Below, in pieces: positions 212-23,761 of a stretch of DNA of 23,761 nt; the first letter of the stretch is position 1; each line of letters starts with the position of its first letter. The translations under genes were made by a program, and so were the position numbers. This DNA is from a virus (lineage: Duplodnaviria > Heunggongvirae > Uroviricota > Caudoviricetes), in the IMG/VR virus record IMGVR_UViG_3300001598_000039, positions 64,001 through 87,761 of that record. One strand, given 5' to 3'. Below the pieces are notes generated by a model that was given only the letters and a program-made list of their open reading frames with translations, had not been told where the DNA came from and did not search any database.

Positions 212-799
212 ATGACGAACGAAGCAAAGATTGATGGCAAGCAGGTCTGGTACCTAGGGAACAATCGCAAGAAGGACCTTCGGATTGTCCAGCCGTCATG
301 GAACCACCCATTCTTCCTGACAACGGACTTCACATACGCCGAGGGGTACTCCGACTATGGTGTATGGAAGGTCTTGCTGAATGACTCTATGAAGTCTAGT
401 ATCTTGGACTTCAGCAAGCCATCTGAGACAAAGAAGCTCAATTGGCCTAAAGTCCTCATCGACTAGATCAAGACTGGCAAGTCAGACTTGAATGCAATTG
501 GCTTCGACATGTACTGCATGGCGAACAGACATGGAGAGCTGTACTAGATCAAGAAGACTGCCGAATGGGAAGCCGCCTCCAAAGAGTTCGCCAAGAAAGC
601 GGCAAAGCCAATCAAAGGCGTCCCTTACTCGCACTGGCAGGACGACTCGGACAACGCGTTTGTCTTGGCGATGTGGCGAGACATTGCAGAGGCCGGCTTC
701 AAAGGCTTCACTCATATCGAGTACGGCCACCAAATCCTTGCGCTCTTCACAATCGACGCCATCTACAAGATCTCTGCGGAAAGGGTCAGCCATGCTTAA
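212..799 (+). CDS. ADP-ribosyltransferase-fold-like protein, 195 aa with two in-frame TAG read-throughs (464-466, 545-547)
   Basis: Frame stays open through both TAGs to TAA 797-799, overlapping the next ATG at 792. The read-through part (IAEAGFKGFTHIE...ILALFT) matches the downstream paralog (LHKLGYKGVITTE...AIGVFD), as does the N-terminal PSWNHPFFLTTD versus PSYEHPFYVTSD. Confidence 0.7.
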
Positions 800-1628
800 T
801 GAAGCTACTATCGACCCAACAAAGCTCTACTTCCATGGGTCAAGCGAAGCCCGTGTTGACTATCTCGACGCGCCAAGCTATGAACACCCATTCTATGTCA
901 CCTCTGACTTGCACTATGCGATGGCGTTCTGCACGAAGCAGATGAGCAGCACTGGCGAGTGGAAAGGCGTCAGCAAGACATTCACTCCTGCAGACAAGAA
1001 CTATGTCTACATCGTCACTATGGACAAGAGCGCCAAGCTCTTTGACTTCAGAGACAGGAAGAACAAGGAGTTCGCCGACTTGGCGAAGGTCATCCCGGTT
1101 TGGATCCTGAAGAAGGTGATTGGCAACATGATGGCGACGGACATCTATGACTTCTGTGTCGACCTGTACTTTGGCATCATCAAGCATGTCATCTTGACTG
1201 ATGACTATGAGGACTACAGCCGCTTCTACAAAGTGAATGCCATGCATGAGCTGAGCGGAACGCCAAAGCTTACGGAGAAGGAGTACGATGATGCCTACCA
1301 GTTCTGCCGCAAGCTTGGCTACAAAGAGGAGATGGACATCCATGAGGTAATGGCTCCTATCCTCAAAGGCCTACATAAGCTTGGCTACAAGGGTGTCATC
1401 ACTACGGAGATCGACAGCAATGACGAAGACGACACTCGCCATGATGTCCGCACCAAGTACGCGATTGGAGTCTTTGATGCTTCAGCAATGGACCGGCTAT
1501 GCTTGACTCCTATGAAGTACAAATGGCTGAAGAAGGTCAACCCAACGTACAAGCAAGGCCAGACTGTAGACTCAGCCGACGCCAAGATCCGCCGATACGT
1601 TGCGCTTTACCGCCAGATGGCAAAATGA
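792..1628 (+). CDS. ADP-ribosyltransferase-fold-like protein, 278 aa; paralog of 212..799
   Basis: Likely start MLNEA at 792. Motifs LYFHGS, FYVTSD..YA, LGYKGV and GVFD resemble H-Y-type/ART-PolyVal-like ART strands. Ends TGA. Confidence 0.65.
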   Translation: MLNEATIDPTKLYFHGSSEARVDYLDAPSYEHPFYVTSDLHYAMAFCTKQMSSTGEWKGVSKTFTPADKNYVYIVTMDKSAKLFDFRDRKNKEFADLAKVIPVWILKKVIGNMMATDIYDFCVDLYFGIIKHVILTDDYEDYSRFYKVNAMHELSGTPKLTEKEYDDAYQFCRKLGYKEEMDIHEVMAPILKGLHKLGYKGVITTEIDSNDEDDTRHDVRTKYAIGVFDASAMDRLCLTPMKYKWLKKVNPTYKQGQTVDSADAKIRRYVALYRQMAK

Positions 1629-1630
1629 AA

Positions 1631-1651
1631 GGCAGCCAGGTGATGGCTGCC
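1631..1651 (-). terminator. Intrinsic terminator hairpin between convergent genes
   Basis: GGCAGCCA-5 nt-TGGCTGCC perfect 8-bp stem, followed on the minus strand by TTTCATTTT. Confidence 0.7.
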
Positions 1652-1684
1652 CAAGAAAGATCCGACTGAATCTGGGTTATTTGT

Positions 1685-2140
1685 TTACTTGACCTCGATC
1701 TTGAGAGGAGCGGGGTCGCATTCGACTTCTGGGATGACCGGCAGGTCAATGCTCAGGACACCGTCTTCAGCTTTAGCGGTGATCTTGGCGGTGTCAATCT
1801 CTGGAGCAAGCGGAAGCTTGAACTCATAGGACTGGTGAGAGATGCCGCAGTACACGAGGTCTGCGTCCTTCACCTTGTTCTCCGAGCCAATTGAGACCGT
1901 AAGCTCGCCATTAAGGACGCGGACATCGACGTCTGCCTTCTTGAACGGAGTGTAGACCACCTCAAGGCCGTATCCAATGGTCTTGCCATTAGTGTCTTTC
2001 TTGGTGAGCAGGTTGTGCGGACGGCTGATGACAGGCTTAAGTCCGCGGTTCTTGAACTGAGTTGCTCCAGACAGTGGGTAGTTGATGAGTGCATCCATCT
2101 GGCTGAACATGTCGTCAAGATGATCGAACAGTGTGTTCAT
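1685..2140 (-). CDS. Small heat-shock protein (Hsp20/alpha-crystallin domain)
   Basis: 151 aa; GISHQSYEFKLPL..IDTAKITAKAEDGVLSIDLP alpha-crystallin signature; AAGGAAAG RBS-like leader; ends TAA. Confidence 0.9.
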   Translation of the reverse strand: MNTLFDHLDDMFSQMDALINYPLSGATQFKNRGLKPVISRPHNLLTKKDTNGKTIGYGLEVVYTPFKKADVDVRVLNGELTVSIGSENKVKDADLVYCGISHQSYEFKLPLAPEIDTAKITAKAEDGVLSIDLPVIPEVECDPAPLKIEVK

Positions 2141-2184
2141 AGTTTGTTTCTTTCCTTGTTAGTTGGTGTCAATCTAATCTTTCT

Positions 2185-2229
2185 TGCTTGCTAGCCGAAG
2201 CAGATTGTTCTTGAATCGACTAGCAAGCA
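2185..2229 (-). other. 14-bp RNA stem-loop in the Hsp20 leader
   Basis: Arms 2185-2198 and 2216-2229 pair fully on the minus-strand RNA with one G-U wobble (an A-C mismatch on the plus strand); 17-nt loop. Confidence 0.6.
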
Positions 2230-2230
2230 T

Positions 2231-2237
2231 TATTTAC
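2231..2237 (-). promoter_or_regulatory. Late promoter box GTAAATA upstream of Hsp20
   Basis: Exact motif between the gp32 stop and the Hsp20 leader. Confidence 0.55.
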
Positions 2238-2248
2238 TTCAGTCCAAG

Positions 2249-3298
2249 TCAGATGCCGTCAACGAGAGCGTCGATGTCAGCGTCCGATGCGTCTGAAGCT
2301 AGTGCAGCAACCGGTGCTGGAGCCGCGGGAGCGACGCTTTCGACCAAGTCTTCGGCGTCATCCTCAGGAATGTCGTCATTCGAGGCAGCAGGTGCAGGCG
2401 CAGGGTTAGCCATTGGCGTAGGCTTGACCGCATTCGTCTTTGCAACAGGTGCCGCCGCCTTTGGTGCTTCGTACACACCCATTGTATCATCCTCAGGGAT
2501 GTCGTCATTCGACACGCAGCAGTAGCGCTTGTAGAAGTCCTTCAGCTCTTCCGGAGTCGAGGTTGTGTAGTACTCTTCGTCGAAGCCCATTCCCTCCACC
2601 TTGGCAAGAGTGATGTCATCGATTGGGTGCGCGCTTTCAACCTTGGTGAATCCCCACTTGTCCCAAACGCGGGTCTTCCAATGGCGTTCATTTGGCTGTC
2701 CTTCATTGGCGACATTGTCAACTTCCGCCATGTGGACATAGAGGTCAACTCCCTTGTCACCATTCCACGCAGGAATGCCCTTACGGCGCAGATTGTCGAC
2801 TGTCGCTCTGAACGTTGCATAGAACTTCGGGTCATTGATCGTGATGACACGGAACTTGCCGTTGTTCCCGGCATATGTTGGGTCATTGATGACGTAGACA
2901 GGGATTGCGGCTTCCCAACGAGGAGCAAACTTGCGGTTCTTCTCACTTGAAGCCTTGTCTTTGTAGCCGGACTCCTTGTAGACACCAAAGTTCATTTTGG
3001 AGAACGCACAGATCGGACATGGTTCAGTATTGATGTCCTCGTTCTGGAGATACTTTGACTTAGGGCAGGTGACAAATGCAAGCTGCTTCCACTTGTTCGT
3101 CGTCGCATCTTTTTCCCAGACCTGGTGAGTGACGCGCTCAACCCATGGGTCTTTGCGGTTAGTTCCAACTCCGGTGCAGCCAATGAGGCGGAACTTGTAG
3201 TACTCTCCTGGTTCGGTTGGGCGAATGCCAAGCCAAAGTGGACGTTTCTTGGCAGAAACAGGAGCTCGTGATGGCAGTGCGTTGATCAACATGCACAT
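2249..3298 (-). CDS. gp32: T4 gp32-like single-stranded DNA-binding protein
   Basis: YKFRLI, CPKSKY...CPIC Zn motif, IPVYVINDP..NNGK, and an acidic, Ala/Pro-rich C-tail; adjacent to a gp59-like gene. Start taken at ATG 3298 (or 3292). Ends TGA. Confidence 0.85.
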   Translation of the reverse strand: MCMLINALPSRAPVSAKKRPLWLGIRPTEPGEYYKFRLIGCTGVGTNRKDPWVERVTHQVWEKDATTNKWKQLAFVTCPKSKYLQNEDINTEPCPICAFSKMNFGVYKESGYKDKASSEKNRKFAPRWEAAIPVYVINDPTYAGNNGKFRVITINDPKFYATFRATVDNLRRKGIPAWNGDKGVDLYVHMAEVDNVANEGQPNERHWKTRVWDKWGFTKVESAHPIDDITLAKVEGMGFDEEYYTTSTPEELKDFYKRYCCVSNDDIPEDDTMGVYEAPKAAAPVAKTNAVKPTPMANPAPAPAASNDDIPEDDAEDLVESVAPAAPAPVAALASDASDADIDALVDGI

Positions 3299-3345
3299 AT
3301 TGGTGTTCTTTCTTTGTGTGTTCTTGTTTGGTTTGTTGTAAGTCA

Positions 3346-3365
3346 CTGAAGCATTGCTGCCTCAG
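3346..3365 (-). promoter_or_regulatory. GNRA-tetraloop hairpin upstream of the gp32 leader
   Basis: CTGAGGCA-GCAA-TGCTTCAG (8 bp, one G-U), followed by about 47 nt of A/C-rich sequence up to the gp32 ATG. Confidence 0.5.
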
Positions 3366-3375
3366 CTAAGTAATA

Positions 3376-4044
3376 TCATACACGCCGTTCAAGCTCTTCG
3401 CCAATCTTTTTGTCAACCAAGCGGATTGGGTTTGGCATTATGTTCTTTGCCTTGAGATGAGCTTCATTGATGTCCGCGCTGTACTTGTCAAAGCGGGCGT
3501 ACAGGTCGGAGAGCTCCATGCGGGTGATTTGGTCAAGCTTCGGGATGATGTCTTTGAACTTAGGGATGGCGGCGAAGAAGTAGATGGAGATGCGCCCTGA
3601 CATGACGTTGCTCGCAAGTGTCTTCGTGCGGATCAGCATGCGGATGTAGTCCTTGACATTCACATACCCCTTGCAGATGCAGTCGCGGACGATGTTGTTG
3701 ACAGACTTGACGTAGTAGCCATAGATCTTGCGGTACTGTCGCTCGCTCTGCCGCCATTCAACATACTTTCCAACCGTGCTGGACGTCATTACACCGGTGA
3801 TGCCGATCTTTCCAAGGTTGAACAAGTAGAACTTGACCAGCGACTCTGCGTTGATGCGGTACTTCGTAAGGAGTTCCGCAATCCTGTCGCATGTCTGCTG
3901 GTTGTTCTTGTAGAAGTTTCGGTATGGGACGACTTGCGGAGTTGCGGCATATGAGTCGCCCCTTACGGCATAGAGGTAGTGCTTGTAGATGCGCGCAACT
4001 CCAAGGCCATCAATAGTAGTGCTATCGGCGAACGGGTCTCGCAT
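3376..4044 (-). CDS. T4 gp59-like helicase loader
   Basis: 222 aa; IDGLGVARIY and MSGRISIYFF resemble recalled gp59 segments; size and position next to gp32 match T4 order. Ends TGA. Confidence 0.6.
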   Translation of the reverse strand: MRDPFADSTTIDGLGVARIYKHYLYAVRGDSYAATPQVVPYRNFYKNNQQTCDRIAELLTKYRINAESLVKFYLFNLGKIGITGVMTSSTVGKYVEWRQSERQYRKIYGYYVKSVNNIVRDCICKGYVNVKDYIRMLIRTKTLASNVMSGRISIYFFAAIPKFKDIIPKLDQITRMELSDLYARFDKYSADINEAHLKAKNIMPNPIRLVDKKIGEELERRV

Positions 4045-4543
4045 AGCTCTTGTACCTAAGCTCCTTCTTCAGTTTCTTCAAGAATGGTCCTTTGAACACC
4101 GATGGGTAGCTCTTGTAGAGGAGCTTGAAGATGTCCATGATGGTCAAGCCGTAGTAAGACATTATACCGCAGATGAACTCCTTGTCGTTCAAGAAGGCAA
4201 CAATCTCCTTCTTGACAAGTGGGTCCGGCTTGTCCGGCGAGAGGTTAGGGAACTTGGCAATGATCTTGTTGATGATAGTGCTGTCATCAAGAGCATCCAG
4301 GATCTTGTCGCTGGTGTAGAAGAACGACGTCTCGACCGATGACTCGAACGAGCCTCCAACGTCTGGCTTCTGGCAGTCTGCTTCTTGGCAAGCCTGCTCT
4401 GGGTCTGTGTCAGCTGGAGTAGTGTCAGCCTTCTTCTTCAATGTGAACGCCTGCTTCTTCTTTGCTGGAGCAGCTTTCTTTGATGCGCTCCTAGAAGCCT
4501 TCTTTGCTGGAGCAGTCTTTGGTTTTGCCTTCTTAGTCTTCAT
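4010..4543 (-). CDS. Hypothetical protein with a Lys/Ala-rich (PAKK) N-terminus; possibly gp33-like by position
   Basis: Standard code ends at TAG 4022-4024; with TAG read-through it ends 4 codons later at TGA 4010-4012. Occupies the T4 gene-33 slot (33-59-32), but similarity is weak. Confidence 0.55.
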
Positions 4544-5967
4544 AGGTCTTCAACTGAGGAGTTGTTGAGCTCTTCGTTCAGGTTTGGCATGCTCGACATG
4601 AGTCGCCCGATCTCACTGTCATCATCGTCGGTTGGGATGTCTGAGTTGTCACTGAAAGTCACGTCTTCCAAGATCAGTGACTCCGGGTCAAGAGTGAAGT
4701 TTGCCAGCTTGCCAACCATGCCTCCTAAACGGTTCTTGAGGACACGCATGTTGATGATGCCATGCTCGCGGTCTTCTGGGCTCTGGTACATGGCGAACAA
4801 GCAGTCTGTCGTATGCACGATTCCACGCGACTCGCTGACGTTCTGCATGTCGATCTCCGCGTTGCCGATGCCTTCGCTGTTCGACTGGACCGCAGAGATG
4901 AATGGGCATTTAAACTGGTAGCTGAGCGCTCTGAGCTCTTCTGACACCGTCAAGCCGTCTTTGTACATCGAGTCGGACTTTGTGTTTGGAAGCACCAAGT
5001 TCAGATAGTCAACGATGACTGCATCAAAGTGGTGGCCAGCGTTCTGCAAGTTCTCCAAGTAGATCTGGATGTCTTTGGACTTGATGCTGCGTGGCGGGTA
5101 CTCCTTGACGTAGAGGTTGGCCTTTGGATGGTTTTCATAGAACGCCTTGATGCGCTCGATCGCAGTGTCAGCATTCTCTTTGAGGCGGTTGATGTTCTTC
5201 TTTGAGAGGTGGGCGTCAAAGCGCTGAGCATAGACGTCTTGGGACATCTCCAAGGATATGACCACCACCGAGAGGTCTTGCCGCATCAAGTTCACCGCCA
5301 GGTTCGACATGAAGACCGACTTGCCGAGGCCAGCTTGCGCCATGAACAGGCATAGCATCTTGCCGTCTTTCAGCAGGCCGCCGTTTGTGTACTGGTCAAG
5401 CGCTACCCATCCGGTCTTGACTTTCGCTTCTGGGTTGTTGATGAACTCCCAGTGCTTGGCCATAGCTGCAGGATCAAAGTAGTTCAAGCCGAGGTCTGTG
5501 TCGTTGAAGGTGATCTTCTGGACTCGGTCAAAGTTCTCCAAGCACTTGTCTACAACCGAGTCAAATGCCTCTGAGTCGCGAGTCAGGAGCTCGGCGTTGT
5601 CATAGAGAGACATCGCCAACGCGTTCTTCCGGATGAAGCCTTTGAGGTTGGTGTTCAAGACGTCATCTGGCATCTGGAGCTCAAGCCTACCAACATCAGC
5701 CAGCAGTTCTTGTGCTTCAGACGCCTTCATCGCGTCAGGGTTCTTCTCACTGTACTTCTTGACCAGCGCCTGTATGACTTGGCTGCTCGGAATGCTGCTG
5801 TACTTGTTGTAGTAGCGGATCACCAGGTTCAGCATGATGCCGATGCTCTGGTTCTTGAACCACCGCCTGTCATACGTGTTGGCGAGGATGTTCAGCCAGT
5901 TCTTGTCGACCAAGCTCTTCTTGAACAGAAGGCGCTCGATCGTGTCCGTTGAGAAGTCTAGTTCCAT
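4540..5967 (-). CDS. gp41: T4 gp41-like replicative DNA helicase (DnaB family)
   Basis: Walker A AQAGLGKS, SLEM, VDYLN, AVQSN, KNRLGG; start at ATG 5967; ATGA overlap with the next gene. Confidence 0.93.
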   Translation of the reverse strand: MELDFSTDTIERLLFKKSLVDKNWLNILANTYDRRWFKNQSIGIMLNLVIRYYNKYSSIPSSQVIQALVKKYSEKNPDAMKASEAQELLADVGRLELQMPDDVLNTNLKGFIRKNALAMSLYDNAELLTRDSEAFDSVVDKCLENFDRVQKITFNDTDLGLNYFDPAAMAKHWEFINNPEAKVKTGWVALDQYTNGGLLKDGKMLCLFMAQAGLGKSVFMSNLAVNLMRQDLSVVVISLEMSQDVYAQRFDAHLSKKNINRLKENADTAIERIKAFYENHPKANLYVKEYPPRSIKSKDIQIYLENLQNAGHHFDAVIVDYLNLVLPNTKSDSMYKDGLTVSEELRALSYQFKCPFISAVQSNSEGIGNAEIDMQNVSESRGIVHTTDCLFAMYQSPEDREHGIINMRVLKNRLGGMVGKLANFTLDPESLILEDVTFSDNSDIPTDDDDSEIGRLMSSMPNLNEELNNSSVEDL

Positions 5968-8474: not shown

Positions 8475-9536
8475 TCATTTGATCTTCCAATGGATGCGGT
8501 CGTAGTAGGGGAAGACGTTGCTCGAAGTCGTAGTCTGGCTGCACCAATAGTTGGACGGGACTACACATGATGTTCCATCTGCACCAACACTTAGGTCGTA
8601 GTGGTCGCTGGAGATGTAGCCGGAAACAGGACCGCACTCTTCCTCATAGCTGTTGACTTCAGCGATGTACTCATTGAAGTCACTCATTGTTGGCGTTGGG
8701 TAGAAGCCAAGCTCGAGGCTGTTGATGATAGGAGTGAAGCCGTTGTACACTTCAGCGCTCAAGTCTGGGTTCTGGACCAGTGTTTCGACTTTGCCGGTGA
8801 CCAGTGAAGTCAGTGTAGCAGTCATCTCCGTGTCTGGGTACTGCTCATGGAACGATGAGACTTGGTTTGGATGGACAATGACACGCTGCTCTTCGACATA
8901 CGTTGAGAGGCATGAAGACAAGACTTGCTGCGGTACAAGTGATGCTTGCTTAGTTCCTCCAAACAAGAAAGTCTAGAACGTGAAGTTGAAGGTGCTAGTA
9001 TGCAAGTCAAGCTGCGAAGCGTCCAGCTCATCTGGATGCTCTTCATTGACTCCATCGTCCATGATGATCTTGTTGTTCAGTCTGATGCCTTCATACTTTG
9101 GGTGCTGTGCTGAGATGAAGGTGTTGGAGTTGAAGAACACCATGAAGTTCGAGGCGATCTGGTCGACATCACTTGGGTACTTCGCGACGACACTGACTTC
9201 GTAGCTGATGTCGATAGGGATTGGAGTCAGCAAGTCATAGCGGCGGTCTTTCGACGTGACCTCATACTTGACTTCATTGTGCAGGTCATTCACCCGATCA
9301 CCATTCCGGCTGTAGCCGTTGCGGTTGATGATGATCATTGGAAGCCGATACATGCCTTCACGGTTGCTGTTCTCCAGCGCCTTGACGATGCGTGACCGCT
9401 GTCCAAGCTTGCACATGACATCTATCATGCTGCTCTTGCCTTTGGGGTCAACGCGCTCGATCTTGATGTTGGAGAAGATCTTCTTGAACATCAAGTTGGC
9501 GATAGCAAGTTCGCTGTTGTAGCTTACGACTTCCAT
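8475..9536 (-). CDS. T4 gp15-like tail terminator/completion protein, 353 aa with one in-frame TAG (8973-8975)
   Basis: Track ORFs 8973..9536 and 8475..8966 are in the same frame. The junction reads STFNFTF*TFLFGG, continuing the terminal gp15-like strand. RLPMI..NR and PIPIDISYEVSV..DVDQIASN motifs. GTAAATA box 6 nt upstream. Confidence 0.75.
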
Positions 9537-9542
9537 TGACTC

Positions 9543-9549
9543 TATTTAC
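9543..9549 (-). promoter_or_regulatory. Late promoter box GTAAATA
   Basis: 6 nt before ATG 9536 of the gp15-like gene. Confidence 0.6.
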
Positions 9550-9565: not shown

Positions 9566-10015
9566 TCAATTGAGCTGCTTCTCCGTCAAGATGACGAACT
9601 CTGCCCCATTCTGGCGTGCGGTGACTTTAGCTTGTGCCCACTTGCAGCTGTTCACGACCCAAGTGGTGTTCTGCTGCACATTGTTCTTGTTCTTTGGAGC
9701 ATGGGTTTCGCCAAATGGCTTGACTTCGATCCAGAAAGTCTTGCATCCAACTGCAGTCTTGGCAACGGCAATGAAGTCGATGAAGTACCTGCGTGTCTTT
9801 TGGTGGATACGATCAAAGTACTAGATGCACTTTGGCTCATACTGCCATTTGATGATGGCTGGGTTCTTGTCTAGGTACTGCATGCACCGCAGCTCAAGCG
9901 CGGACTTGAAGACCGGCTGTTGCTGCCCGGCGTACTTCTGCGGGTATAGCGGATAGAACGTTCCAGTTTTGGCTGCGTTGTACTTCCCGCGCTTCCCTTC
10001 GTGGACTTGAACCAT
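9566..10015 (-). CDS. gp4: T4 gp4-like head completion protein (TnsA-like endonuclease fold), 149 aa with one in-frame TAG (9821-9823)
   Basis: GTFYPLYPQKY..FKSALELRCMQYLDKNPAIIKWQYEPKCI*YFDRIHQKTRRYFIDF..WIEVKP..NSCKW..A..NGAEFVILTEKQL. The conserved RRY.IDF and IEVKP motifs lie after the TAG. Ends TGA 9566-9568. Confidence 0.88.
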
Positions 10016-11036
10016 ATGTTGCTTTCTTCTGTTCGGCCTCAACCCACAGCCCATTCTGGATGAGATGCATCTTCATCATCAGCTTGTCTGCTACCAGCTT
10101 CTCGAGCTTCGCGGGATCAGCAAAGGTATTTACATTGCCCTTGGCCAGGACATAGTCATTGATGTCCTTCTCTTTGGTGTTCCGGTTGAACCACTTGAAG
10201 TACTTGAAGTCATTGTCCTTAGACATCAGCTTGGCCATCGCAGCAATGCCTGGCACGTCGTTGTCAAAGGAGACTACAACCTGATGGTGAGGATAGCGGT
10301 CTTTGATGAGCTTCAGCTGGCAGTCATTGATGGACTTTGTGCCCGTGCAGATGCCGTTCTTGACGAAGAGGCTGTCATAGAAGCCTTCAAAGACAAAGAT
10401 GTAGGGGAAGCAGACGTCAACTGCATCTAGTCCAGCAACAAGCTTGCGGCTGTCCTTTGGGAAGATGTACTTCAGGTTGCCATGCTTCTGGAAGTCGTTG
10501 AGCTGGAAGTAGGCATCTACTCCGTTGAGCACCCAGTCAATCAGGATGTACTCCTTTCCCTTCGGGCTCGTCCAGCTGTATAAGTCATCATGGTAGAATG
10601 GAGCGTCTAGGACATGCCTCTTGGAGAGGTAGTCTTTAGCGGCGTCAGTCAAGCTGTTCTTCCATTCTGGCTTGACCATCGGCTTCAAGTCGAACATCGA
10701 CGGCTCAGCGTCTGGCTTGTCTCCGCACCAAGCCGACAAGTTTGGGTTGATGCCTGACTTTAAGAACAGCTTGATGTACTCTTTCTTGATCTCCGCGTAG
10801 TCGTATCCAGCAACAGCTTCAAGGAACTTGATGCCAGACATCGCGCAACCGCAGTTGAAGCAGTAGTACGACCCAGTTGAAAGGTAGAACCAACCGCGCG
10901 CCTTTGTCTTGGACTTGTGCGAGTCGCCACAGATTGGACAGCGCCCATGGAGCTTGTTTCCAATCCGCCTCCATCCAGGAGGAAGATGCTCCATCACTCG
11001 CTCGTCGATGAACTGTATGAACTCATAGGACAGCAT
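9894..11036 (-). CDS. gp61: T4 gp61-like DNA primase
   Basis: Zn finger RCPICGDS..KARGWFY..YCFNCG; TOPRIM FEGFYDSLF and FDND; KDIND. The C-terminus overlaps gp4 by 122 nt. Confidence 0.92.
   Translation of the reverse strand: MLSYEFIQFIDERVMEHLPPGWRRIGNKLHGRCPICGDSHKSKTKARGWFYLSTGSYYCFNCGCAMSGIKFLEAVAGYDYAEIKKEYIKLFLKSGINPNLSAWCGDKPDAEPSMFDLKPMVKPEWKNSLTDAAKDYLSKRHVLDAPFYHDDLYSWTSPKGKEYILIDWVLNGVDAYFQLNDFQKHGNLKYIFPKDSRKLVAGLDAVDVCFPYIFVFEGFYDSLFVKNGICTGTKSINDCQLKLIKDRYPHHQVVVSFDNDVPGIAAMAKLMSKDNDFKYFKWFNRNTKEKDINDYVLAKGNVNTFADPAKLEKLVADKLMMKMHLIQNGLWVEAEQKKATYGSSPRREAREVQRSQNWNVLSAIPAEVRRAATAGLQVRA
10127..10133 (-). promoter_or_regulatory. Candidate internal late promoter GTAAATA for gp4
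   Basis: Exact motif inside the primase 3' region, about 110 nt upstream of the gp4 ATG. Confidence 0.4.
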
Positions 11037-14258: not shown

Positions 14259-16100
14259 TTATGCTTCGCTGTCGACGATCTTGCTGATGCCGTCCTTCTT
14301 CTGGACCTCAATGACTCGGTCGAACATCTCGGTATGCACTTCCGAGCGATGCGAGATGACGAAGACGCTCTGGTTGCTCGAAGATGTGAAGTCCTTGAAG
14401 ATCGACAAGATAGACTCGACTGCAAGAGTGTCAATGCCAGAGTCGATGTACTCATCGATGACCAGGATGTTCGAAGAGATGTTGCTGCGCTGGGCAATGA
14501 AGTCTCTGAACGACAGGCAAGTGGCGATCTCAAGGCGCTTCTTCTCACCACAGGAGAAGTTCTGCAGTTCGCACGGCCCAGATGCCGTTATGAACTCATA
14601 GTCTAGACTGTCATCGAAGACGCATGTGTAGTTTGCTCCCATCTTCGTCAGGTAGTACTTGATCCGGTTGTTGATGATGCCGATCAGGTCTTTGATGATG
14701 AACTTCTTCAGCGACTCGTGGCTGACGATCTCTTCAGCCTTCTTGAGGTACTTGTACGTCTTGCTGTAGGAGTCAAGTTGGTCTTGCTGGGCTTTCATCC
14801 TAGCTTCGGTTTGGCCAATCAGCTCAGCATATGGGTTCTTCTTTGCTTCCAACTGGCTCTTGTTGCTTTCAAGGAGAGCGAGGTTGCGCTCGGCTGCGCT
14901 CTGCTCAGCCTTGGCGCGATTGAAGTCCGCGGTCAAGCTTGTGAGCTTTGCCTTTAGTTCAGCAGTCTTTGTCACAACTGCTGCTTTTTTAGTGTCAAGC
15001 GCCTCTTGGTCAGCAATGACTTGACGCAGTTCGACGTTCTTAGCAGCAATCTCTCTGTCGGCGGCGGAGATAGCAGACTGGCAAGTGTCTAGGCTGTAGT
15101 GCTTGCTGAACACTCCCTTACAGTCATCACACAGCTTTGCCATCAAGTCTGCATGCTTGTCAATCTGCTTCTGCTGGTCTCGCCGGATTGACTGCTGCAT
15201 GCTGATGCTTGAGCTGATTGTGCTCTTCTTTGCGCTGAGGCTTGCAGACTTGACTGCTGCTTTCCGGCTTGCCTCATCTAGCTTAGTGAGTGATGCTTCA
15301 CACTTGGCGATCGCATCGGTGTTCTTCTCAACCGCGGTCGACATCAAGCGCTCAAGGTCGCCTTTGGCTTTGGTGATCTTAGCTTCGGTCTCAGCAAGTT
15401 CCGCAGCCTTTGACTCATCAAAGCTCTTGCTCTTTGCCGCGTAGTCCGCGGAGTTCTGCTCAAGGACAATCATCTGGTTCTGGCATGCCAAGATAGACTT
15501 GTCATGCTGGAGGATGTCCTTGTGTATTGCTTCGTGCATGTCGCCAAAGATGCCGATGTCGAAGAGCTTCTCAATGAAGTCCCGCTTGTCCTGCTTCTTG
15601 AGGTTGAAGAAGTTGTAGTTCTGCTCAGATGTCAACAAGATCGTGCGGAGGAACAGCGAGATGTCGCAGTGCAGCACCTCTTCTTCAAAGAAGCTGCGCG
15701 TCTCGGCGATAGATGACTTGGTGATGTCAACTTCGTTTCCGTCGGTGATCTGGACAAGCTCAAAGTATGATTGGGCGCACTTGTTCATGCCAGTCGTCGC
15801 CCTATACTGAGTTCCGTCTACGTCGAGGAACACCGAGACCCTGACTTCTTTGTCCGCGATGTTGCGGTTGGCGATGTGCTCAGCCTTGATCTTGTTTGGA
15901 AGCTGCCCATAGAGGCCGTACGCCAATGCTAAGAAGACGGTAGACTTGCCGGCGCCATTCTTGGAGTTAGCCGCATCAAAGCTGATGTCACAGTTCTTGC
16001 CTGTCACTAAGCTCATGCCCTTGTGTGAGGTGAAGTCAAACACCTCATCGCCAAATGACATGAAGTTGTGGATCTCTAGCCGATTGAAGTTTGCTCTCAT
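14259..16100 (-). CDS. gp46: T4 gp46-like (Rad50/SbcC) recombination ATPase
   Basis: Walker A NGAGKST, coiled coil with CDDC zinc hook, signature FSCGEKKR, Walker B VIDEYID, ISH. Confidence 0.93.
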   Translation of the reverse strand: MRANFNRLEIHNFMSFGDEVFDFTSHKGMSLVTGKNCDISFDAANSKNGAGKSTVFLALAYGLYGQLPNKIKAEHIANRNIADKEVRVSVFLDVDGTQYRATTGMNKCAQSYFELVQITDGNEVDITKSSIAETRSFFEEEVLHCDISLFLRTILLTSEQNYNFFNLKKQDKRDFIEKLFDIGIFGDMHEAIHKDILQHDKSILACQNQMIVLEQNSADYAAKSKSFDESKAAELAETEAKITKAKGDLERLMSTAVEKNTDAIAKCEASLTKLDEASRKAAVKSASLSAKKSTISSSISMQQSIRRDQQKQIDKHADLMAKLCDDCKGVFSKHYSLDTCQSAISAADREIAAKNVELRQVIADQEALDTKKAAVVTKTAELKAKLTSLTADFNRAKAEQSAAERNLALLESNKSQLEAKKNPYAELIGQTEARMKAQQDQLDSYSKTYKYLKKAEEIVSHESLKKFIIKDLIGIINNRIKYYLTKMGANYTCVFDDSLDYEFITASGPCELQNFSCGEKKRLEIATCLSFRDFIAQRSNISSNILVIDEYIDSGIDTLAVESILSIFKDFTSSSNQSVFVISHRSEVHTEMFDRVIEVQKKDGISKIVDSEA

Positions 16101-17316: not shown

Positions 17317-18186
17317 ATGAAGCTTAACCTAGAGATCCTCCCAGATGAGAGCGTCCTTTCAACGGACTCAGCAGAGACGGTCAAGAAGATCATCCGCCAA
17401 GCGGAGAAGTTCATCGCTAAGAACAAGCTTGGCCACTGCAAGGTCCTTGGCTGCAACGAGACTAGCCATCCATCAGGCTCGGTCTTCGAGATCACATTCA
17501 AAGGGCCAATCACTGAGCTGCTAGTCATCTATGGGAAGTACTTCTACGGCAAGAGCCCAGATTCGCTCAGCCTCGACGACTTGCGTGACTTGGTGAGCAA
17601 AGAGATGGGACAGCTCGAAGAGGCGCAAGAATGGTACGTCGACTGGAAGGACAATGAAGGAGACAGCGGAACATCTGGGCCGTTTGCTACGAAAGAGGAG
17701 CTCGACAAGTACATCGCTGCTTCTGACGCACGAGCATCAGCAAGCGAACGCACGGACTTCGGAGAGCCTTACTTGAAGGACAAAGTCGCCAAGCCGGCGA
17801 CGAAAGTTGAGCCAAAGAAGGAAGTAGCTAAGGTTGAGCCGGCTAAGCCAACAGTCCTCAACGTTGGTTCCGTTGTCGCTCGGCTCTTCAGAGGCATCTT
17901 TGGCCAGATGTATGACGTCAAGGTCATGAGCAAAGCAGAGGTCATGAAGTTGGCTGACTCAGATGACCATGCTCGTCTCTTCATAAGAGACCTCAAAGGC
18001 GGTGACTTCAAAGACTGCATCGTCATGAGCTGCAACCGTGATGTGCTGGACATCGATGACTTTGAAGGAAAGATGCAGGCGCTGCTTGGCTACATTGCGG
18101 TCAAGCCTGAGCAGTTCTACTTCAAGTCAGACGTCGACGGCAAGGGGAAAGACTGGGTCTTCCTCCCAATCGACTACGCCGACTGA
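17317..18186 (+). CDS. Hypothetical late protein (possible virion component)
   Basis: 289 aa with an internal K/P/E-rich linker; preceded by a late box; no recognised motif. Confidence 0.7.
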   Translation: MKLNLEILPDESVLSTDSAETVKKIIRQAEKFIAKNKLGHCKVLGCNETSHPSGSVFEITFKGPITELLVIYGKYFYGKSPDSLSLDDLRDLVSKEMGQLEEAQEWYVDWKDNEGDSGTSGPFATKEELDKYIAASDARASASERTDFGEPYLKDKVAKPATKVEPKKEVAKVEPAKPTVLNVGSVVARLFRGIFGQMYDVKVMSKAEVMKLADSDDHARLFIRDLKGGDFKDCIVMSCNRDVLDIDDFEGKMQALLGYIAVKPEQFYFKSDVDGKGKDWVFLPIDYAD

Positions 18187-18207
18187 ACATCTCCAGCAGA
18201 TGTGACG

Positions 18208-18237
18208 AAGCAGGCCGGAATCGCTTCCGGCCTGCTT
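18208..18237. terminator. Probable bidirectional terminator
   Basis: Perfect 13-bp inverted repeat AAGCAGGCCGGAA-TCGC-TTCCGGCCTGCTT between convergent genes. Confidence 0.8.
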
Positions 18238-18263
18238 GAGTCTTTGGAACTAGACACAATTTG

Positions 18264-19892
18264 TCACATCATCGGCGGCATCTGAGGCGCGCTCTTCTTG
18301 GCGTCCTCGGGGTCGTCGACGATGCCGCAGTCTGTCGTAAGGAGCAGGCCTGCGATCGAAGATGCGTTCTCCACCTCGCTGATGATGACTGCTGCAGGGT
18401 CAACGACGCCATCGGCAACCATGTCCACGTACTCCTTCTTCAGGACGTTGTAGCCGGTGCCATTCAGCGTGCTCTTCTCAAGCAGCTTGGCGATGATGAG
18501 CTCAGTCGTCTCACCAGCGTTGTCAAGGATGCGCTTTGCAGGAGCGCTCAGCGACTCACGGAGGATCTCTGCTCCAAGCCACTCATCACCAACGTAGTCA
18601 GCCTTGTTGAAGTTGACTGCCTGGCTGGCTTCAAGGAGCATGACACCACCGCCAGGGACGATGCCGGACTTGATCGAGTTCTTGGCGCTGTTGAAGGCGT
18701 CATCAACTCGGTCTTTCTTCTCAGCAAGCTCGGTCTCGGTCGTTGCTCCAACCGAGATGACTCCAATGCCAGAAGTCAGCTTGCTGTAGCGCTCAGTGAG
18801 CTTCTTCTTGTCAAACTCATCCTTGGCGGCGTCAATCTGGACCTTGATGCTGGCGACATACTTGTCCAGCGCTGCCTTGTCACTGCAGCCACCAACAATC
18901 GTCGTCTGGTCCTTGCTGACGATCACATTCTTTGCTGATCCAACGATTCCGCAGCTGAGGTTGACCTGGTTGAGCACAACTCCGAGCTCGTCTGAGACGA
19001 CTTGGCCGCCGCAGAGAGCGGCGATGTCGCGGAGGATCGCCTTCTTGTTGTCGCCATAGCTTGGAGCTTGGACGGCGCAGACAGGGAAGCCCTTCAGCTT
19101 GTTGATGACCAACGTTGAGAGTGCATCGCCTTCGACGTTCTCCGCGATGATGAGCAACGGACGGCCTTGGCCATTCGTCGAGACGTCTTGGAGGAGAGGG
19201 ATGATCTCCTGGAGGTTGCTGAGCTTCTTCTCAGTCACCAAGATCCATGGATTGCTGAGGTCTGCCTCCATCGCCTCGTTTGTGACAAAGTAAGGAGAGA
19301 GCCAACCGCGCTCGATGACCATTCCTTCGACGATCTTCGACGCCATTTCAGTTCCGCGGCCGTCTTCGACTTTGATCGTCCCTTCAGTTCCAAGCTTGGA
19401 GAAGACATCAGCAATGACTTCAGCGATCTCCTCGTCGTTGTTCGCACTGATCTTAGCGACCTGCTTGATCGCATCTTTGCCGGAGATTGGTGTTGCGCGG
19501 CCTTCAACATACTTGATGACAGCCTTTGCCGCCTTGTCGATGCCATTCTTCACCTGGACCGCATTGGCGCCCATTGAGACGTACTTGAGGCCGTTCTTGT
19601 AGATTGACTCACAGAGCACAACTGTGCCGGTCGTTCCATCACCAGACTTGTCGTTAGTCTTGCTTGACGCTTCGCGGACGAGCGACGCACCGATGTTCTC
19701 AAAGGGGTCCTTCAGCTCAACCGCCTTCGCGACAGTGACGCCGTCCTTGGTCAAATGGATTCCTGCTCCGCGTGAGATCGCGACTGTACGGCCTTTCGGT
19801 CCGAGTGTCGAACTCACAGCTTTGCTGATCTTAGAGACGCCCGCGAGGACCTTGCCTCGAAGCTCCGTGTCATAGTTGATCATCTTGCTCAT
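18264..19892 (-). CDS. groEL: Phage-encoded GroEL/Cpn60 chaperonin
   Basis: TLGPKGR, TKDGVTVAK, GDGTT, ISANND, GIVPGGG, GLLLTT; about 542 aa from ATG 19892. Confidence 0.95.
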   Translation of the reverse strand: MSKMINYDTELRGKVLAGVSKISKAVSSTLGPKGRTVAISRGAGIHLTKDGVTVAKAVELKDPFENIGASLVREASSKTNDKSGDGTTGTVVLCESIYKNGLKYVSMGANAVQVKNGIDKAAKAVIKYVEGRATPISGKDAIKQVAKISANNDEEIAEVIADVFSKLGTEGTIKVEDGRGTEMASKIVEGMVIERGWLSPYFVTNEAMEADLSNPWILVTEKKLSNLQEIIPLLQDVSTNGQGRPLLIIAENVEGDALSTLVINKLKGFPVCAVQAPSYGDNKKAILRDIAALCGGQVVSDELGVVLNQVNLSCGIVGSAKNVIVSKDQTTIVGGCSDKAALDKYVASIKVQIDAAKDEFDKKKLTERYSKLTSGIGVISVGATTETELAEKKDRVDDAFNSAKNSIKSGIVPGGGVMLLEASQAVNFNKADYVGDEWLGAEILRESLSAPAKRILDNAGETTELIIAKLLEKSTLNGTGYNVLKKEYVDMVADGVVDPAAVIISEVENASSIAGLLLTTDCGIVDDPEDAKKSAPQMPPMM

Positions 19893-19932
19893 GCTAGTTC
19901 TTTCTTGTCTTTCTGATTGTTCTGTAGACATT

Positions 19933-19938
19933 ATTGTA
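19933..19938 (-). promoter_or_regulatory. -10 box TACAAT for groEL
   Basis: Intergenic, 40 nt upstream of ATG 19892, with an A-rich leader. Confidence 0.5.
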
Positions 19939-19954
19939 CAGTCCGCCAGATGAA

Positions 19955-19961
19955 GTAAATA
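19955..19961 (+). promoter_or_regulatory. Late promoter box GTAAATA
   Basis: 8 nt before ATG 19970. Confidence 0.6.
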
Positions 19962-19969
19962 GTGATGCT

Positions 19970-20206
19970 ATGAAGACCATCATCACAATTGTGCTGAACG
20001 CCATTGGAAGCAGCTTGGCAAGCATCCTATGCGAAGGCTTGAGCTGCGCTAAGGCGCTCATCCAGTTCCTAAATGGAAAGCGCCAAGACAAGAAGGAAGC
20101 TGAAGCGCAAGCTAAGGTTGATGCCAAGAACAGCGCGATTGATGATGCGTGCAACAATGGCACTCTAGAAGACCTTTTAGACGCAACCAAAGGAGTGAAG
20201 AAGTGA
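19970..20206 (+). CDS. Small membrane protein, candidate i-spanin
   Basis: 78 aa; hydrophobic N-terminus followed by a charged helix; GTGA overlap with a lipoprotein gene. Confidence 0.45.
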   Translation: MKTIITIVLNAIGSSLASILCEGLSCAKALIQFLNGKRQDKKEAEAQAKVDAKNSAIDDACNNGTLEDLLDATKGVKK

Positions 20207-20421
20207 AAGCTTTAGCCATAGTGGCGATGTTCGTGATGCTGCTTGTTGGATGTAAGACAGCTGAGCCAACAGTCGAGACTACCAAGTGCTGGGAAGGGCA
20301 CTACTACAACACCAATGACTTTGTGACAGCAACAAAGCAGATCGAACTTGGACCAAAAGAGTCTATTTGGGTCCTCTCAAACCGCACGCTGTCGCGACTT
20401 CTGCAAAACACAGGAAAGTGA
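20203..20421 (+). CDS. Lipoprotein, candidate o-spanin
   Basis: GTG start; MKALAIVAMFVMLLVG-C signal peptide with LVGC lipobox; 72 aa. Confidence 0.6.
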   Translation: MKALAIVAMFVMLLVGCKTAEPTVETTKCWEGHYYNTNDFVTATKQIELGPKESIWVLSNRTLSRLLQNTGK

Positions 20422-20936
20422 TGACTATGACAGAAATGACCATGCCAGCGGACGTCAAGAAAGTCCAGAAGGCCCTCAACAAGCTCATCTCCGAAGAGAT
20501 GCTTGCGTACCTCACCTACAACGCCTATACCATTGCTGCTGACCCAGTCAACATCCCAGTGATCGCTGAGACCTTCAAAGAGATCGCCGAAGATGAGCTC
20601 AATGACCACCATGCCAACCTTGTCGCATGGGCGCTCGCTCATGGCTATGACATCCCTTGCAACTACAAGGAGTATGCCAAGCATGCATCTGAAGTCTCCG
20701 TCGCAGCGTACGACAAGGTGAAGAAGAACCAAGATGCGCGCTACTACATCGAAGAAGCACTCAAGGCTGAATGCGACGCCATCATGTCCTACACTGAGTT
20801 CCTTGACGCCGACTACATCCCATACGACTTGAATGCGATCATGCTCCAGAACTACTATGATGAGCTTGAGCACAGTGAAGACCTTCGCTCATTGCTCTAC
20901 GGCATCGACGCCAAGGAACAGTTTGGATTCGACTGA
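20421..20936 (+). CDS. Ferritin-like di-iron four-helix bundle protein
   Basis: SEEMLAY, EDELNDH, AECDAI and DELEH ligand pattern; about 170 aa. Confidence 0.75.
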   Translation: MTMTEMTMPADVKKVQKALNKLISEEMLAYLTYNAYTIAADPVNIPVIAETFKEIAEDELNDHHANLVAWALAHGYDIPCNYKEYAKHASEVSVAAYDKVKKNQDARYYIEEALKAECDAIMSYTEFLDADYIPYDLNAIMLQNYYDELEHSEDLRSLLYGIDAKEQFGFD

Positions 20937-20956
20937 GAGGGAAGAGGAAGACTACA

Positions 20957-21781
20957 ATGCACTACAACATCCAAAGCATGAGCAAGATGGTGCCAAGCCT
21001 CAAGGAGTTTGGCTATGACATCAAGACCCAGATTGAGAACGGCATCATCGGTGTAGACAACTCAAGAGCCTACTCCCGCGAGTGGATCAACAACTACTTC
21101 AAGATCGATGGGCCAAAGCCAAAGAACCGCTATGCGAAGCGCGACCAATACATCAATGACCAGCAAGTCGATGAAGTTGGCTACATGCTTGAGCACAAGA
21201 AGTTCCTCGCATTCGCCAAATACCTCTACAAGCAGCTAGATGAGTCTCTCAAAGACACCCAGTTCGGCTTCTGGACAGTTGACCAGCTCAATGCGCTCAT
21301 TGACCTAGCGCACAAGTACAACGGCCTGACGACAGACAACTACAAGCTGGCCATCAACTTCGACGTGCTCAGCAAGTACATCAAGATCTCACCTGAAGTC
21401 TCATCTGTGCAGAAGCTTGAAACTAGCGACCTTGACTTGAACAAGCAGTACCGCAACAACTACCTTGACACATACCGCCTGCTTGGCGCGCTTCTTGGTG
21501 AGATCAAAGGCCTAGAAGAGCACCTCAGAGAGTATGAAGCCAACTTGGCGCTTGTCGCAAAGACACCGGCATTCAAGATCAGCTGCCTCGTCTCAAAGCT
21601 GATGGTGTTCTACACTGTGGTGTTCGCCATCCCAAAGGCCTTCAACAACTACATCAAGTTTGGCATCGCCAAGTTCGAGCAAGAGAAGTTCGACAAGGCG
21701 CAAGCAGCCGCTCAAGCTGAACTCGACGCCATGGACCCGATCTCTCGCTACTATGCGACACACTCTTACACAGGAGACTGA
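20957..21781 (+). CDS. Hypothetical protein
   Basis: 274 aa with typical codon usage and a GAGGAAG RBS; no recognised motif. Confidence 0.75.
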   Translation: MHYNIQSMSKMVPSLKEFGYDIKTQIENGIIGVDNSRAYSREWINNYFKIDGPKPKNRYAKRDQYINDQQVDEVGYMLEHKKFLAFAKYLYKQLDESLKDTQFGFWTVDQLNALIDLAHKYNGLTTDNYKLAINFDVLSKYIKISPEVSSVQKLETSDLDLNKQYRNNYLDTYRLLGALLGEIKGLEEHLREYEANLALVAKTPAFKISCLVSKLMVFYTVVFAIPKAFNNYIKFGIAKFEQEKFDKAQAAAQAELDAMDPISRYYATHSYTGD

Positions 21782-21785
21782 TGAA

Positions 21786-21968
21786 ATGAGCATTCTTAAG
21801 AAAGCGCTTGCAGCTTTGGCCCTTATGGCCGTCTTAGTTGGCTGCACCACAAAGAACGACTACCAAGGCGACACAGGCACCAACACTGTCATCTTTGCTG
21901 CCGGATTCAATGAAGAGCAGTACGTCTGGGAGGCTTTCCTCTTTCCGACGAACCGCACCGAAAGGTAA
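21786..21968 (+). CDS. Small lipoprotein
   Basis: MSILKKALAALALMAVLVG-C, LVGC lipobox, 60 aa; ends TAA. Confidence 0.65.
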   Translation: MSILKKALAALALMAVLVGCTTKNDYQGDTGTNTVIFAAGFNEEQYVWEAFLFPTNRTER

Positions 21969-21971
21969 ATA
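21965..21971 (+). promoter_or_regulatory. Late promoter box GTAAATA
   Basis: Overlaps the lipoprotein stop; followed by a GAGGA RBS and ATG 21993. Confidence 0.55.
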
Positions 21972-21992
21972 GCTCAACTGAGGACAACAACT

Positions 21993-22160
21993 ATGGACCT
22001 AGAGACAATCGAGTTAGGCGGACTGAGAAGTGCTGATCCGCTCATCACTACAGACGCACTTTCTACCGCAATCAATGGCCTGGCCGACAAGACTGAAGTC
22101 TGGCTTACAGTTGACCCTTCAACTGGCCGTGTCGCAGCTACATACGATGACGGTGAATAA
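21993..22160 (+). CDS. Small hypothetical protein (55 aa)
   Basis: Manual translation MDLETIELGG...ATYDDGE; GAGGA RBS; below the ORF-track cutoff. Confidence 0.6.
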   Translation: MDLETIELGGLRSADPLITTDALSTAINGLADKTEVWLTVDPSTGRVAATYDDGE

Positions 22161-22197
22161 TCACAAACTTGCCTGAACAGCAGAAAGCAACAAACTT

Positions 22198-23761
22198 ATG
22201 GCTATCACAAAGATCGACCTCGCAACATACTCACAGCAAGAGCGCATCCTTACTGGCATCGACGCCCTCGCAATGAGCACTAGTTCCATCCAACCTGTCC
22301 GTTGGCACGTCAAGCGCATCAACGGCAACCAAGTCACGCTGAACTAGCGCGACCCGCCTGATGCCTATGGAGTCCAATGGGCAAGCACGCGCATCGTCAA
22401 GAAGCAGAACGCTGTCCCAGCTTACCCAACGGATGGCACGCTTGTCGTTGAGACCACGACTCGCAACCAATACGCCTCAACTGGCTATGTTGACACCCAA
22501 GCTGACGCCGGGACATGGTACTACAAGGCCTTCCCATATTCCTCAGCAGGGCTTGCCAACGTCTCGGACCTCAATGTCTTCGCCGACTCTGAGCAATATG
22601 GCTTCTACATCGACACCCTCGACGCTGATGAGAACAGCTGTGTCCACTACATCGGAGCAAACACTGACTTCAACAAGCTCTACATGGACTTCAACAGCGA
22701 CACTTTGGTCTGGGGAGACTGGCAGAATGCCTTCTTCATGCCAAAGCCTTGCATGCTGAACCTTGATGGCACAGTCGCATACTACCTCAACCCTTCTGAC
22801 TACACTAAGAAGGCTGATGGGACCGCGTCTGATGTCACAAACACCGCTTATGCTGGAAATGCGATGATGGAGTTCCCTGCGATCTACTACAAGATCTACA
22901 CGGAGAACAACAAGCACTACTTCCTCATCGCTGACAACAAGATCGATGATGACTATGAGTGCTGGAGCTGCAAGAAGGCTGATGGCACCTACTCTGAGCA
23001 CTTCTACCTTCCTTGCTACGAAGGCTCTGTTGTCTCTGGAACACTTCGTTCTATGTCGACAGGAGCTCTTCCAACAGGAAGCACAAACTCGACGAACGAG
23101 TACCAGTATGCTACAAACAACGGCTCTGGCTGGTACCCAACACTTTGGGCTGATGAGATGCTCATGCGGATGCTTGGAACTCTCGTCTTTGGCCGCTTGA
23201 ACTCGCAAGAAGCTATCGGGTCACTCTACAAAGCGGGCTCAGGTTCGCTTTACCTCAACTGCGGCTCGCTGAACGCTAAAGGCCTCTTCTATGGTAAGCG
23301 CTTCAATGGAGTCGACAACCAGCTCACTGGCACTAAGTTCTTCGGCATGGAGAACTGGTGGGGACATCGTTGGCGCCGTTCACAAGGCTTCAATACTGTT
23401 GGAAGTGGAGCAGTTTGGGTCAAGATGACTCCTTCGATGATTGATGGGTCCAAGTGTGTCGGATTCAAGACAAGCGATTCTGAGGCGGACTACACTGGCA
23501 ACTATGTCTCTGCCGGCAGTATCTATTGTCCAATGACTTCAGGTGACTTCATTACTGGCATCAACGCCACGAAGTTCAATGCATTCAGCCCGACTACAGT
23601 TGTTGGCTCATCTGCGACATACTTCTGCGACAAGATGTGGAGCAATACTGGCGTTAAGTGCCTTTACTCTGGCGGCAACTTGAACAATGGCTACAATGCC
23701 GGTCTGTTCGCGTTCAACGCGAACAACGCCCCATCGAACGCCAACTGGAACATCGGGGCTT
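22198..23761 (+). CDS. Tail fibre/receptor-binding-like protein (>520 aa, partial) with an FN3-like N-domain, a C-type-lectin-like C-terminus and one in-frame TAG (22345-22347)
   Basis: Manual translation from ATG 22198 is open to the window end apart from one TAG. Contains WASTRIVKK..PTDGTLVVETTTRNQY..GYVD..YYKAFPYS, WQNAFFMPKPCML, GNAMMEFP, FFGMENWWG and GGNLNNG..GLF..N.NN..SNANWNIG. Absent from the ORF track. Confidence 0.8.
23671..23761 (+). repeat. DGR variable/template-repeat-like AAC-rich segment (partner copy not in window)
   Basis: 10 of 30 codons are Asn (8 AAC, 2 AAT) in the GGxWxN...N.NN...N.NWNIG pattern typical of DGR targets. Confidence 0.5.

Follow-up and report, generated by a model that had tools for sequence, protein, structure and literature searches.

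Reading of the amber codon TAG as glutamine (Gln; genetic code 15) has been described in gut phages of the crAss-like, Lak, Jade, Sapphire, Agate, Garnet, Amethyst and Topaz clades (10.1101/2021.08.26.457843; PMC9523058), and Gln at TAG was validated by proteomics for crAss-like phages (PMC9523058). In published recoded phages, early genes fit the standard code of the host and late genes need a suppressor (10.1101/2021.08.26.457843; PMC9523058). Within a pair of Agate phages sharing more than 90% average nucleotide identity, one was TGA-recoded (tryptophan, Trp) and the other used the standard code (10.1101/2021.08.26.457843, Fig. 3). Phassvirus phAss-1, of 136 kb, has TAG in 41 open reading frames (ORF) and three suppressor tRNAs (PMC10607447). 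The present analysis concerns the in-frame TAG codons of a window of 23,761 nucleotides (nt), positions 64,001-87,761 of the 87,761-base IMG/VR contig IMGVR_UViG_3300001598_000039, whose core genes are those of a T4-like phage. From comparisons of sequence, this uncultured phage very likely reads TAG as Gln in some of its genes, using a suppressor tRNA(CUA) that it encodes itself.

The phage shared with the code-15 gut phages the apparent use of TAG as Gln, a phage suppressor tRNA, a code varying among close relatives, and the concentration of recoded codons in scattered structural and lysis modules with replication genes spared. By features alone it resembled the phAss-1 group: both come from gut viromes, carry in-frame TAG within characteristic phage ORF and encode suppressor tRNAs. 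It differed from the published code-15 clades, in which 26-71% of genes are recoded, in having about 0.3 TAG per 1000 codons and about 10 recoded genes out of about 110, in agreement with the very sparse use of TAG described in the initial annotation. It also differed from the published route to recoding through low guanine plus cytosine (GC) content and preference for TAA, as the GC content of the contig was 53% and its main stop codon was TGA (74 TGA, 36 TAA). Unlike the Agate pair, the two strains compared here (96% identity) both used TAG, and differed at 12 sites. With laboratory T4 amber mutants on supE hosts, which insert Gln, late genes with TAG give full-length products only when a tRNA(CUA) inserts Gln; the suppressor here would instead be phage-borne, and the TAG were natural, conserved, and polymorphic in wild populations. 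The phage is a sparse, 53% GC addition to the known code-15 phages, and the phenomenon itself was already known.

The five in-frame TAG reported initially in the window (464, 545 and 22345 on the plus strand; 8973 and 9821 on the minus strand) were all verified in frame, in the ORF 212..799 (par1), 8475..9536 (gp15), 9566..10054 (gp4) and 22198..23760 (tail protein). The claim that no TAA or TGA interrupts a gene held across the entire 87.7-kb contig. The TAG at window 4022, taken initially for a true stop with a backup TGA, was most likely a sixth sense TAG of the window. A whole-contig codon-usage scan added three firm TAG upstream in the contig (genome 33415, 33790 and 50040), which brought the firm in-frame TAG of the 87.7-kb contig to nine. 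That all nonsense codons were TAG (9/9) had p ~0.007 under a mutation-only expectation. Homology continued past the TAG, as had been proposed: PHROG profiles crossed those of gp15 (phrog_227, residues 4-205, TAG at 188) and gp4 (phrog_218, residues 28-161, TAG at 78), and full-length homologues of par1 (over both TAG), gp4, the tail protein and the upstream hydrolase spanned the TAG positions. The comparison of coding density under codes 11 and 15 suggested in the initial annotation was run and did not discriminate between them (0.888 vs. 0.894), and coding density with TAG, TGA or TAA as sense was rejected as a test for the same reason. A codon-score join test flagged TAG but also 19 TGA and 5 TAA between same-frame neighbouring genes, and was not taken as evidence.

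Sister contigs with 95-96% nt identity were found through 90%-identity clusters in runs ERR11637157 (L028, L029, L030, L031, L033) and SRR9184936 (L027, L032, L034). The TAG at window 464, 4022, 8973 and 9821 and at genome 33415 were kept across samples, and neighbouring changes were often synonymous. Synonymous differences greatly exceeded nonsynonymous differences on both sides of every TAG, with ratios of 11:0 (5' of the TAG) and 19:3 (3') in gp15, 2:0 and 10:0 in gp4, 2:0 and 15:1 in the tail protein, and 7:1, 2:1 and 11:3 in the successive segments of par1. On these comparisons, both flanks of each TAG are under purifying selection. The TAG of both gp15 and gp4 were retained in strain L028, that of gp15 adjoining a synonymous change. 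In par1, TAG 464 was kept in two other strains and TAG 545 was CAG in both. Differences in the opposite direction were found at par1 codon 11 (242-244), gp15 9105 and 9012, and gp4 9611, all of which were CAG in the window and TAG in the sister strain.

Strain differences involving a stop codon inside real genes concerned TAG only. At the 12 sites with TAG in one strain and a sense codon in another, the sense codon was CAG at nine, CAA at two and TGG at one. Single-step TAG/sense differences paired with CAG in 9/10 cases, for an expected CAG share of 0.20 (p = 4e-6) calculated from codon abundances with transitions weighted twofold. In syntenic relatives, retrieved by searches with gp15, with gp4 and with a profile of the helicase, in-frame TAG were aligned to Gln of this phage in 41/137 cases vs. 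a background of 3.4% (p = 3e-27). Because both the strain polymorphisms and the pairing of the relatives' TAG pointed to Gln, the TAG-to-Gln reading of the initial annotation was supported. As CAG and TAG swapped freely within the species in TAG-bearing genes, TAG acted there as a nearly synonymous Gln codon. At the four sites that could be polarised (by three strains, or by a wider family giving the ancestral state), the singleton state was TAG, which suggests ongoing gains of TAG.

A candidate suppressor was encoded by sister strain L030, which matched the contig at 96% across 6.5 kb and then extended beyond the contig end. Its tRNA was 76 nt long, with anticodon CUA, a U1:A72 pair and an encoded CCA, scored 46 bits against the Rfam tRNA family, and had uvsY on one side and the sheath gene on the other. 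This tRNA recurred, shortened by a single base in the D-loop, in L037, a 7.4-kb contig from run SRR1221442 reached via an identical UvsY protein and 95.3% identical to the sister strain; SRR1221442 also held an exact copy of the end of the contig. In-frame TAG in L037 numbered one in the UvsW-like helicase gene and three in the sheath gene, so that the tally of sense TAG was nine firm on the contig plus four on the same-run contig. The phage very probably carries its own amber suppressor, judging from these contigs; that it is charged with Gln we infer from the codon comparisons and not from the sequence of the tRNA. Neither a blastn search of the tRNA against phages nor exact-pattern scans for either tRNA(CUA) (the second is described below) in viral and genome contig collections gave a match; a lone pattern hit in an actinobacterial metagenome-assembled genome (MAG) was rejected as a chance match, with no tRNA there.

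In strain L038 (run SRR9184935), whose flanks were 99% identical to those of the ERR11637157 strain, a 176-nt segment with the class I tRNA was replaced by a 137-nt segment. This segment held a different 88-nt tRNA(CUA) in the opposite orientation, with a long variable arm and G73, called by ARAGORN; Rfam gave only tRNA-Sec at 31.7 bits, below threshold. In L038 the suppressor cassette may have been exchanged for one of a different amino-acid identity. Within the 120 nt 5' of the tRNA of L037 (minus strand of 2540-2660), the hexamers TTGTAC and TACAAT were observed, TACAAT about 14 nt before the tRNA, and a GTAAATA box stood 40 nt 5' of the sheath gene. A promoter of host type, as opposed to a late promoter, may drive transcription of the suppressor.

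Counting both strains, sense TAG were found in the genes for gp4, gp15, the sheath, the tail protein, the fibre and the hydrolase, in par1 and par2, in the gene of the UvsW-like helicase, in a fibre-like gene of 672 codons, and in three further genes of unknown function. Annotated structural plus lysis genes had 6 TAG vs. 130 Gln codons, and annotated non-structural genes had 1 TAG, a start-extension artefact, vs. 259 Gln codons (Fisher p = 0.008; p = 1.4e-4 with TAG of the sister strain added). Annotated replication, recombination, chaperone and sugar genes were free of TAG despite hundreds of synonymous strain differences. Strain changes in genes without TAG comprised 35 CAG/CAA and 0 CAG/TAG, compared to 5 and 11, respectively, in genes with TAG. 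The late-promoter-like box GTAAATA had 7 copies in the window vs. 0.38 expected, and stood 5' of every transcription unit with a TAG-bearing gene, save that of window 4022 (Table 1); no late motif was found 5' of the 4010..4543 gene, which holds that TAG. Outside the window, GTAAATA preceded the hydrolase operon and the fibre gene.

At least four genes of an early-looking region ended in a strain-conserved TAG (Table 1). The extensions past these four stops had negative coding scores and differences rich in nonsynonymous changes, or else overlapped the next gene. TAG had thus not ceased to act as a terminator. As TAG terminators survived, TAG was not fully reassigned, and the code looks gene-class dependent; it is probably also time dependent, as in published recoded phages. 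A CTTAAGTTAACG motif at L003:7427-7456 and L003:9001-9030, within about 20 nt 3' of two TAG-terminated early genes, is probably part of a repeated early intergenic promoter or terminator unit. A BspA-type LRR_5 gene directly 3' of a GTAAATA box (L003:14320-14877) also ended in a conserved TAG; the 28 codons past this TAG scored positive for coding, and it is possibly a tenth sense TAG.

Internal stops in the syntenic relatives were TAG only. Density among these relatives was 0 (L017, G003), 0.4, 2.4, 2.9, 4.6, and 10-13 TAG per 1000 aligned codons, and the dense relatives carried TAG also in the helicase, primase and SbcCD genes. GC content was rejected as the driver of TAG density, as L017 (39% GC) had none and relatives with 40% GC had 10-13 per 1000 codons. 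Gene trees of DnaB, UvsX, primase and SbcC were weakly resolved and mutually discordant, yet interleaved the phage with users of TAG. The proposal of an early or minimal stage of reassignment was retained as to minimal; an early stage was unproven, as nearly all syntenic relatives already used in-frame TAG. Together with the interleaved trees, this makes reading of TAG probably old in the clade. By these comparisons, the low density of TAG alone is specific to this lineage, and may reflect mutation-selection balance or a recent expansion.

Early in infection, following the published model, the host would stop at TAG, so that early genes would terminate normally. The phage tRNA(CUA) would then build up and TAG in late messages would be read as Gln, and gp4, gp15, sheath, fibre, tail and cell-wall hydrolase proteins would be made at full length. 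This timing, and any regulatory benefit from it, we infer. Several observations weighed against reading of TAG as Gln by a phage suppressor, or against the proposed timing. The 87.7-kb contig itself had no tRNA, Rfam match, release factor or Gln- or Glu-tRNA synthetase, and the tRNA(CUA) was tied to the phage by a same-run contig with equal sister-strain divergence, not by physical continuity. The tRNA had U73 and C3:G70, and E. coli tRNA-Gln has G73 and G3:C70; with these differences, charging is unreadable from the tRNA sequence. Distant homologues had lysine (Lys), not Gln, at the TAG of gp15 (6/6 relatives), gp4 (12/15 of the homologues aligned) and window 4022; the tail TAG was aligned with an invariant Trp (31/32 homologues); and hydrolase residue 90 was mostly asparagine. 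With such deep-homologue columns, a Codetta-type call made from the columns of this single genome would not return Gln. Finally, the TAG-terminated gene 15423..15713 followed a GTAAATA box, so that the split between early and late genes was not clean.

The alternative that survived best was partial read-through without full reassignment, in which TAG would be suppressed in part only and would serve mainly, as an attenuator or gate, to reduce or hold back the output of certain late proteins. This tentative and rather unlikely alternative accommodates the TAG that still end some genes, the small share of TAG among Gln-type codons of structural genes (merely ~4%), and the five sites with TAG in all strains compared. 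Changes from TAG to CAG also seemed proportionally commoner than from CAG to TAG, as if TAG were mildly costly. Partial read-through would differ from reading of TAG as Gln in degree, not as a separate mechanism, as tRNA(CUA) would still be required; moreover, the relatives with 10-13 TAG per 1000 codons, helicase and primase genes included, must suppress efficiently, and the singleton TAG at the polarised sites look like ongoing gain. A more speculative and doubtful reading is that the always-kept TAG (gp4, gp15, hydrolase, par1) form a selected translational gate, by which lysis and the completion of virions would depend on how much tRNA(CUA) is made from the gene beside the sheath gene, with the cassette exchangeable and the meaning of TAG differing between near-identical strains.

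That TAG is sense and stands for another amino acid (Lys, pyrrolysine, Trp or serine), or for different ones in different strains, was improbable. Apart from the Lys and Trp columns, this explanation would fit the TGG of the sister strain at the tail TAG, the different, serine-like tRNA(CUA) at the same locus in L038, and the discriminator U73 of the main tRNA, atypical for tRNA-Gln. The polymorphisms decided against it: 9/10 were with CAG and none with AAG, GAG, TCG, TTG or TAY, though AAG was 2.7 times commoner than CAG, and the TAG of relatives met Gln nine times above background. Readings as Lys, pyrrolysine or Trp taken from deep-homologue columns were rejected on the strain polymorphisms, and the contig showed no pyl genes. 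At the Lys-aligned sites, a change from Lys to Gln followed by one from CAG to TAG is an easy path and the simplest account.

That the TAG are true stops, with genes broken in a decaying or defective genome or truly split, or with errors of assembly or sequencing, was hardly credible: each fragment is an ORF under code 11 and is split by gene callers, and the tail TAG at an invariant Trp resembles a fresh nonsense mutation, but five TAG were kept across samples with purifying selection on either side of each, every interruption was TAG with no frameshift, TAA or TGA, essential genes (gp4, gp15, sheath) were affected, the tail TAG was followed by a long run without a start codon, a second assembler gave the same sequence, and a cognate suppressor tRNA was encoded.

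The TAG of the tail protein gene was followed by 113 codons without ATG, GTG or TTG, and homology began before the first of these. It fell in the FN3-like motif V.L.W.DP.D, and the strain with TGG at the site was L032. A second assembly of the same sample (Logan, SRR1221442; L035) reproduced the end of the contig, with the tail TAG, at 100% identity. From these alignments, the site is a TGG-to-TAG change in this lineage, with Gln in place of Trp at a core position that is otherwise conserved; if read as Gln, a core aromatic residue would be lost, and the change may be a tolerated or mildly harmful recent mutation. Sister strain L030 (6478-13000) diverged completely from the contig at window 22072, just 5' of the tail gene, and past this point had other genes, among them a peptidase-like gene and one of 559 codons that held three TAG. 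This divergent region resembles a variable locus for the tail or for host range.

The TAG at window 4022 preceded a TGA by four codons and was kept in the sister strain. The C-terminus of the product aligned through the TAG with that of relative L019 (..RR[TAG]HYY vs. ..RKKHDY), and late in infection this TAG is probably decoded as sense. Termination at this TAG would cost just three residues, and either reading gives nearly the same protein. The N-terminus of the product, of about 35 residues, was rich in Lys, alanine and proline and resembled a histone tail.

The genes par1 and par2 were tandem paralogues (window 212-1628). Their domain of about 190 residues was found in metagenomes alone, or at the N- or C-terminus of proteins of 350-900 residues, and matched no Pfam or PHROG family. 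About 120 nt of the gp4 gene (window 9894-10015) overlapped the primase gene at the 3' end of the latter, an overlap kept in relatives G001 and L017. The sister-strain version of the gene at 20957..21781 was called as two proteins of 68 and 198 amino acids.

The 87.7-kb contig had a CheckV completeness of 31%, for an estimated full genome of about 280 kb. Gene content of the window was T4-type (DnaB-like helicase, UvsX, primase, SbcCD-like gp46/47), with helicase loader, GroEL and Hsp20 also encoded, and with gp15, gp4 and the tail protein scattered among these genes. The T4-type core genes present by PHROG and Pfam matches were gp4, gp15, gp41 helicase, gp61 primase, UvsX, gp46/47, UvsY, UvsW and gp18 sheath, and by this core-gene content the phage classes as a T4-like (Straboviridae-type) myovirus. 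UvsX had less than 30% identity with that of cultured T4-like phages, and T4-like cyanophages were the top matches. A megablast search of the window against GenBank phages gave zero matches, and a single-protein scan of the viral contig collection with gp4 gave none. Homologues of the tail protein were found in a Phascolarctobacterium MAG.

Table 1. Coordinates of genes, TAG codons, promoter-like boxes and tRNA(CUA) genes. Positions are those of the window unless preceded by "genome" or by a contig identifier.
Feature	Coordinates	Strand	Remarks
par1	212..799	+	195 codons, unknown function; sense TAG 464-466, 545-547
par2	792..1628	+	par1 paralogue, no TAG; CAA 1554-1556 is TAG in sister strain
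Gene beside helicase	4010..4543	-	177 codons, ATGA-coupled to DnaB-like helicase gene; TAG 4022-4024
gp15-like tail sheath stabiliser	8475..9536	-	353 codons; sense TAG 8973-8975
gp4-like head completion protein	9566..10015	-	probable start 10015; sense TAG 9821-9823
Unknown-function gene	20957..21781	+	274 codons; CAG 21161-21163 is TAG in sister strain
Tail protein (phrog_5302)	22198..23760	+	gene cut by contig end; TAG 22345-22347
Cell-wall hydrolase gene	TAG at genome 33415, 33790		codon-usage scan; homologues run through TAG positions
Fibre gene	TAG at genome 50040		~1456 codons; codon-usage scan
GTAAATA box	199..205	+	7 nt 5' of par1
GTAAATA box	9543..9549	-	7 nt 5' of gp15
GTAAATA box	10127..10133	-	5' of gp4, within 3' part of primase gene
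GTAAATA box	19955..19961	+	head of operon holding gene 20957..21781
GTAAATA box	21965..21971	+	5' of 55-codon gene and tail protein gene
TAG-terminated gene	genome 7232..7426		early-looking region
TAG-terminated gene	genome 8791..9000		early-looking region
TAG-terminated gene	genome 15423..15713		early-looking region
TAG-terminated gene	genome 18994..19332		early-looking region
Class I tRNA(CUA)	L036:3503-3578		
Class I tRNA(CUA)	L037:2465-2539		75 nt, one-base D-loop deletion
Different tRNA(CUA)	L038:110-197		88 nt, class II, serine-like, opposite orientation

What is new in this phage is the evidence for Gln from populations, the place of the tRNA gene, the survival of TAG terminators, the range of TAG density in the clade, and, in L038, a second tRNA(CUA) of a different kind at this same locus. 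Sparse recoding of this kind slips past coding-density tests, and standard pipelines therefore split the genes for gp4, gp15, sheath, fibre, tail and hydrolase, as happened in the public gene calls of the contig. Amber suppression in phages would reach beyond low-GC, TAA-preferring lineages. The three samples at 95-99% identity, together with relatives having 0-13 TAG per 1000 codons, form a natural population series in which gain and loss of a reassigned codon are directly measurable, and in which the idea of late gating could be tested on a few defined sites.

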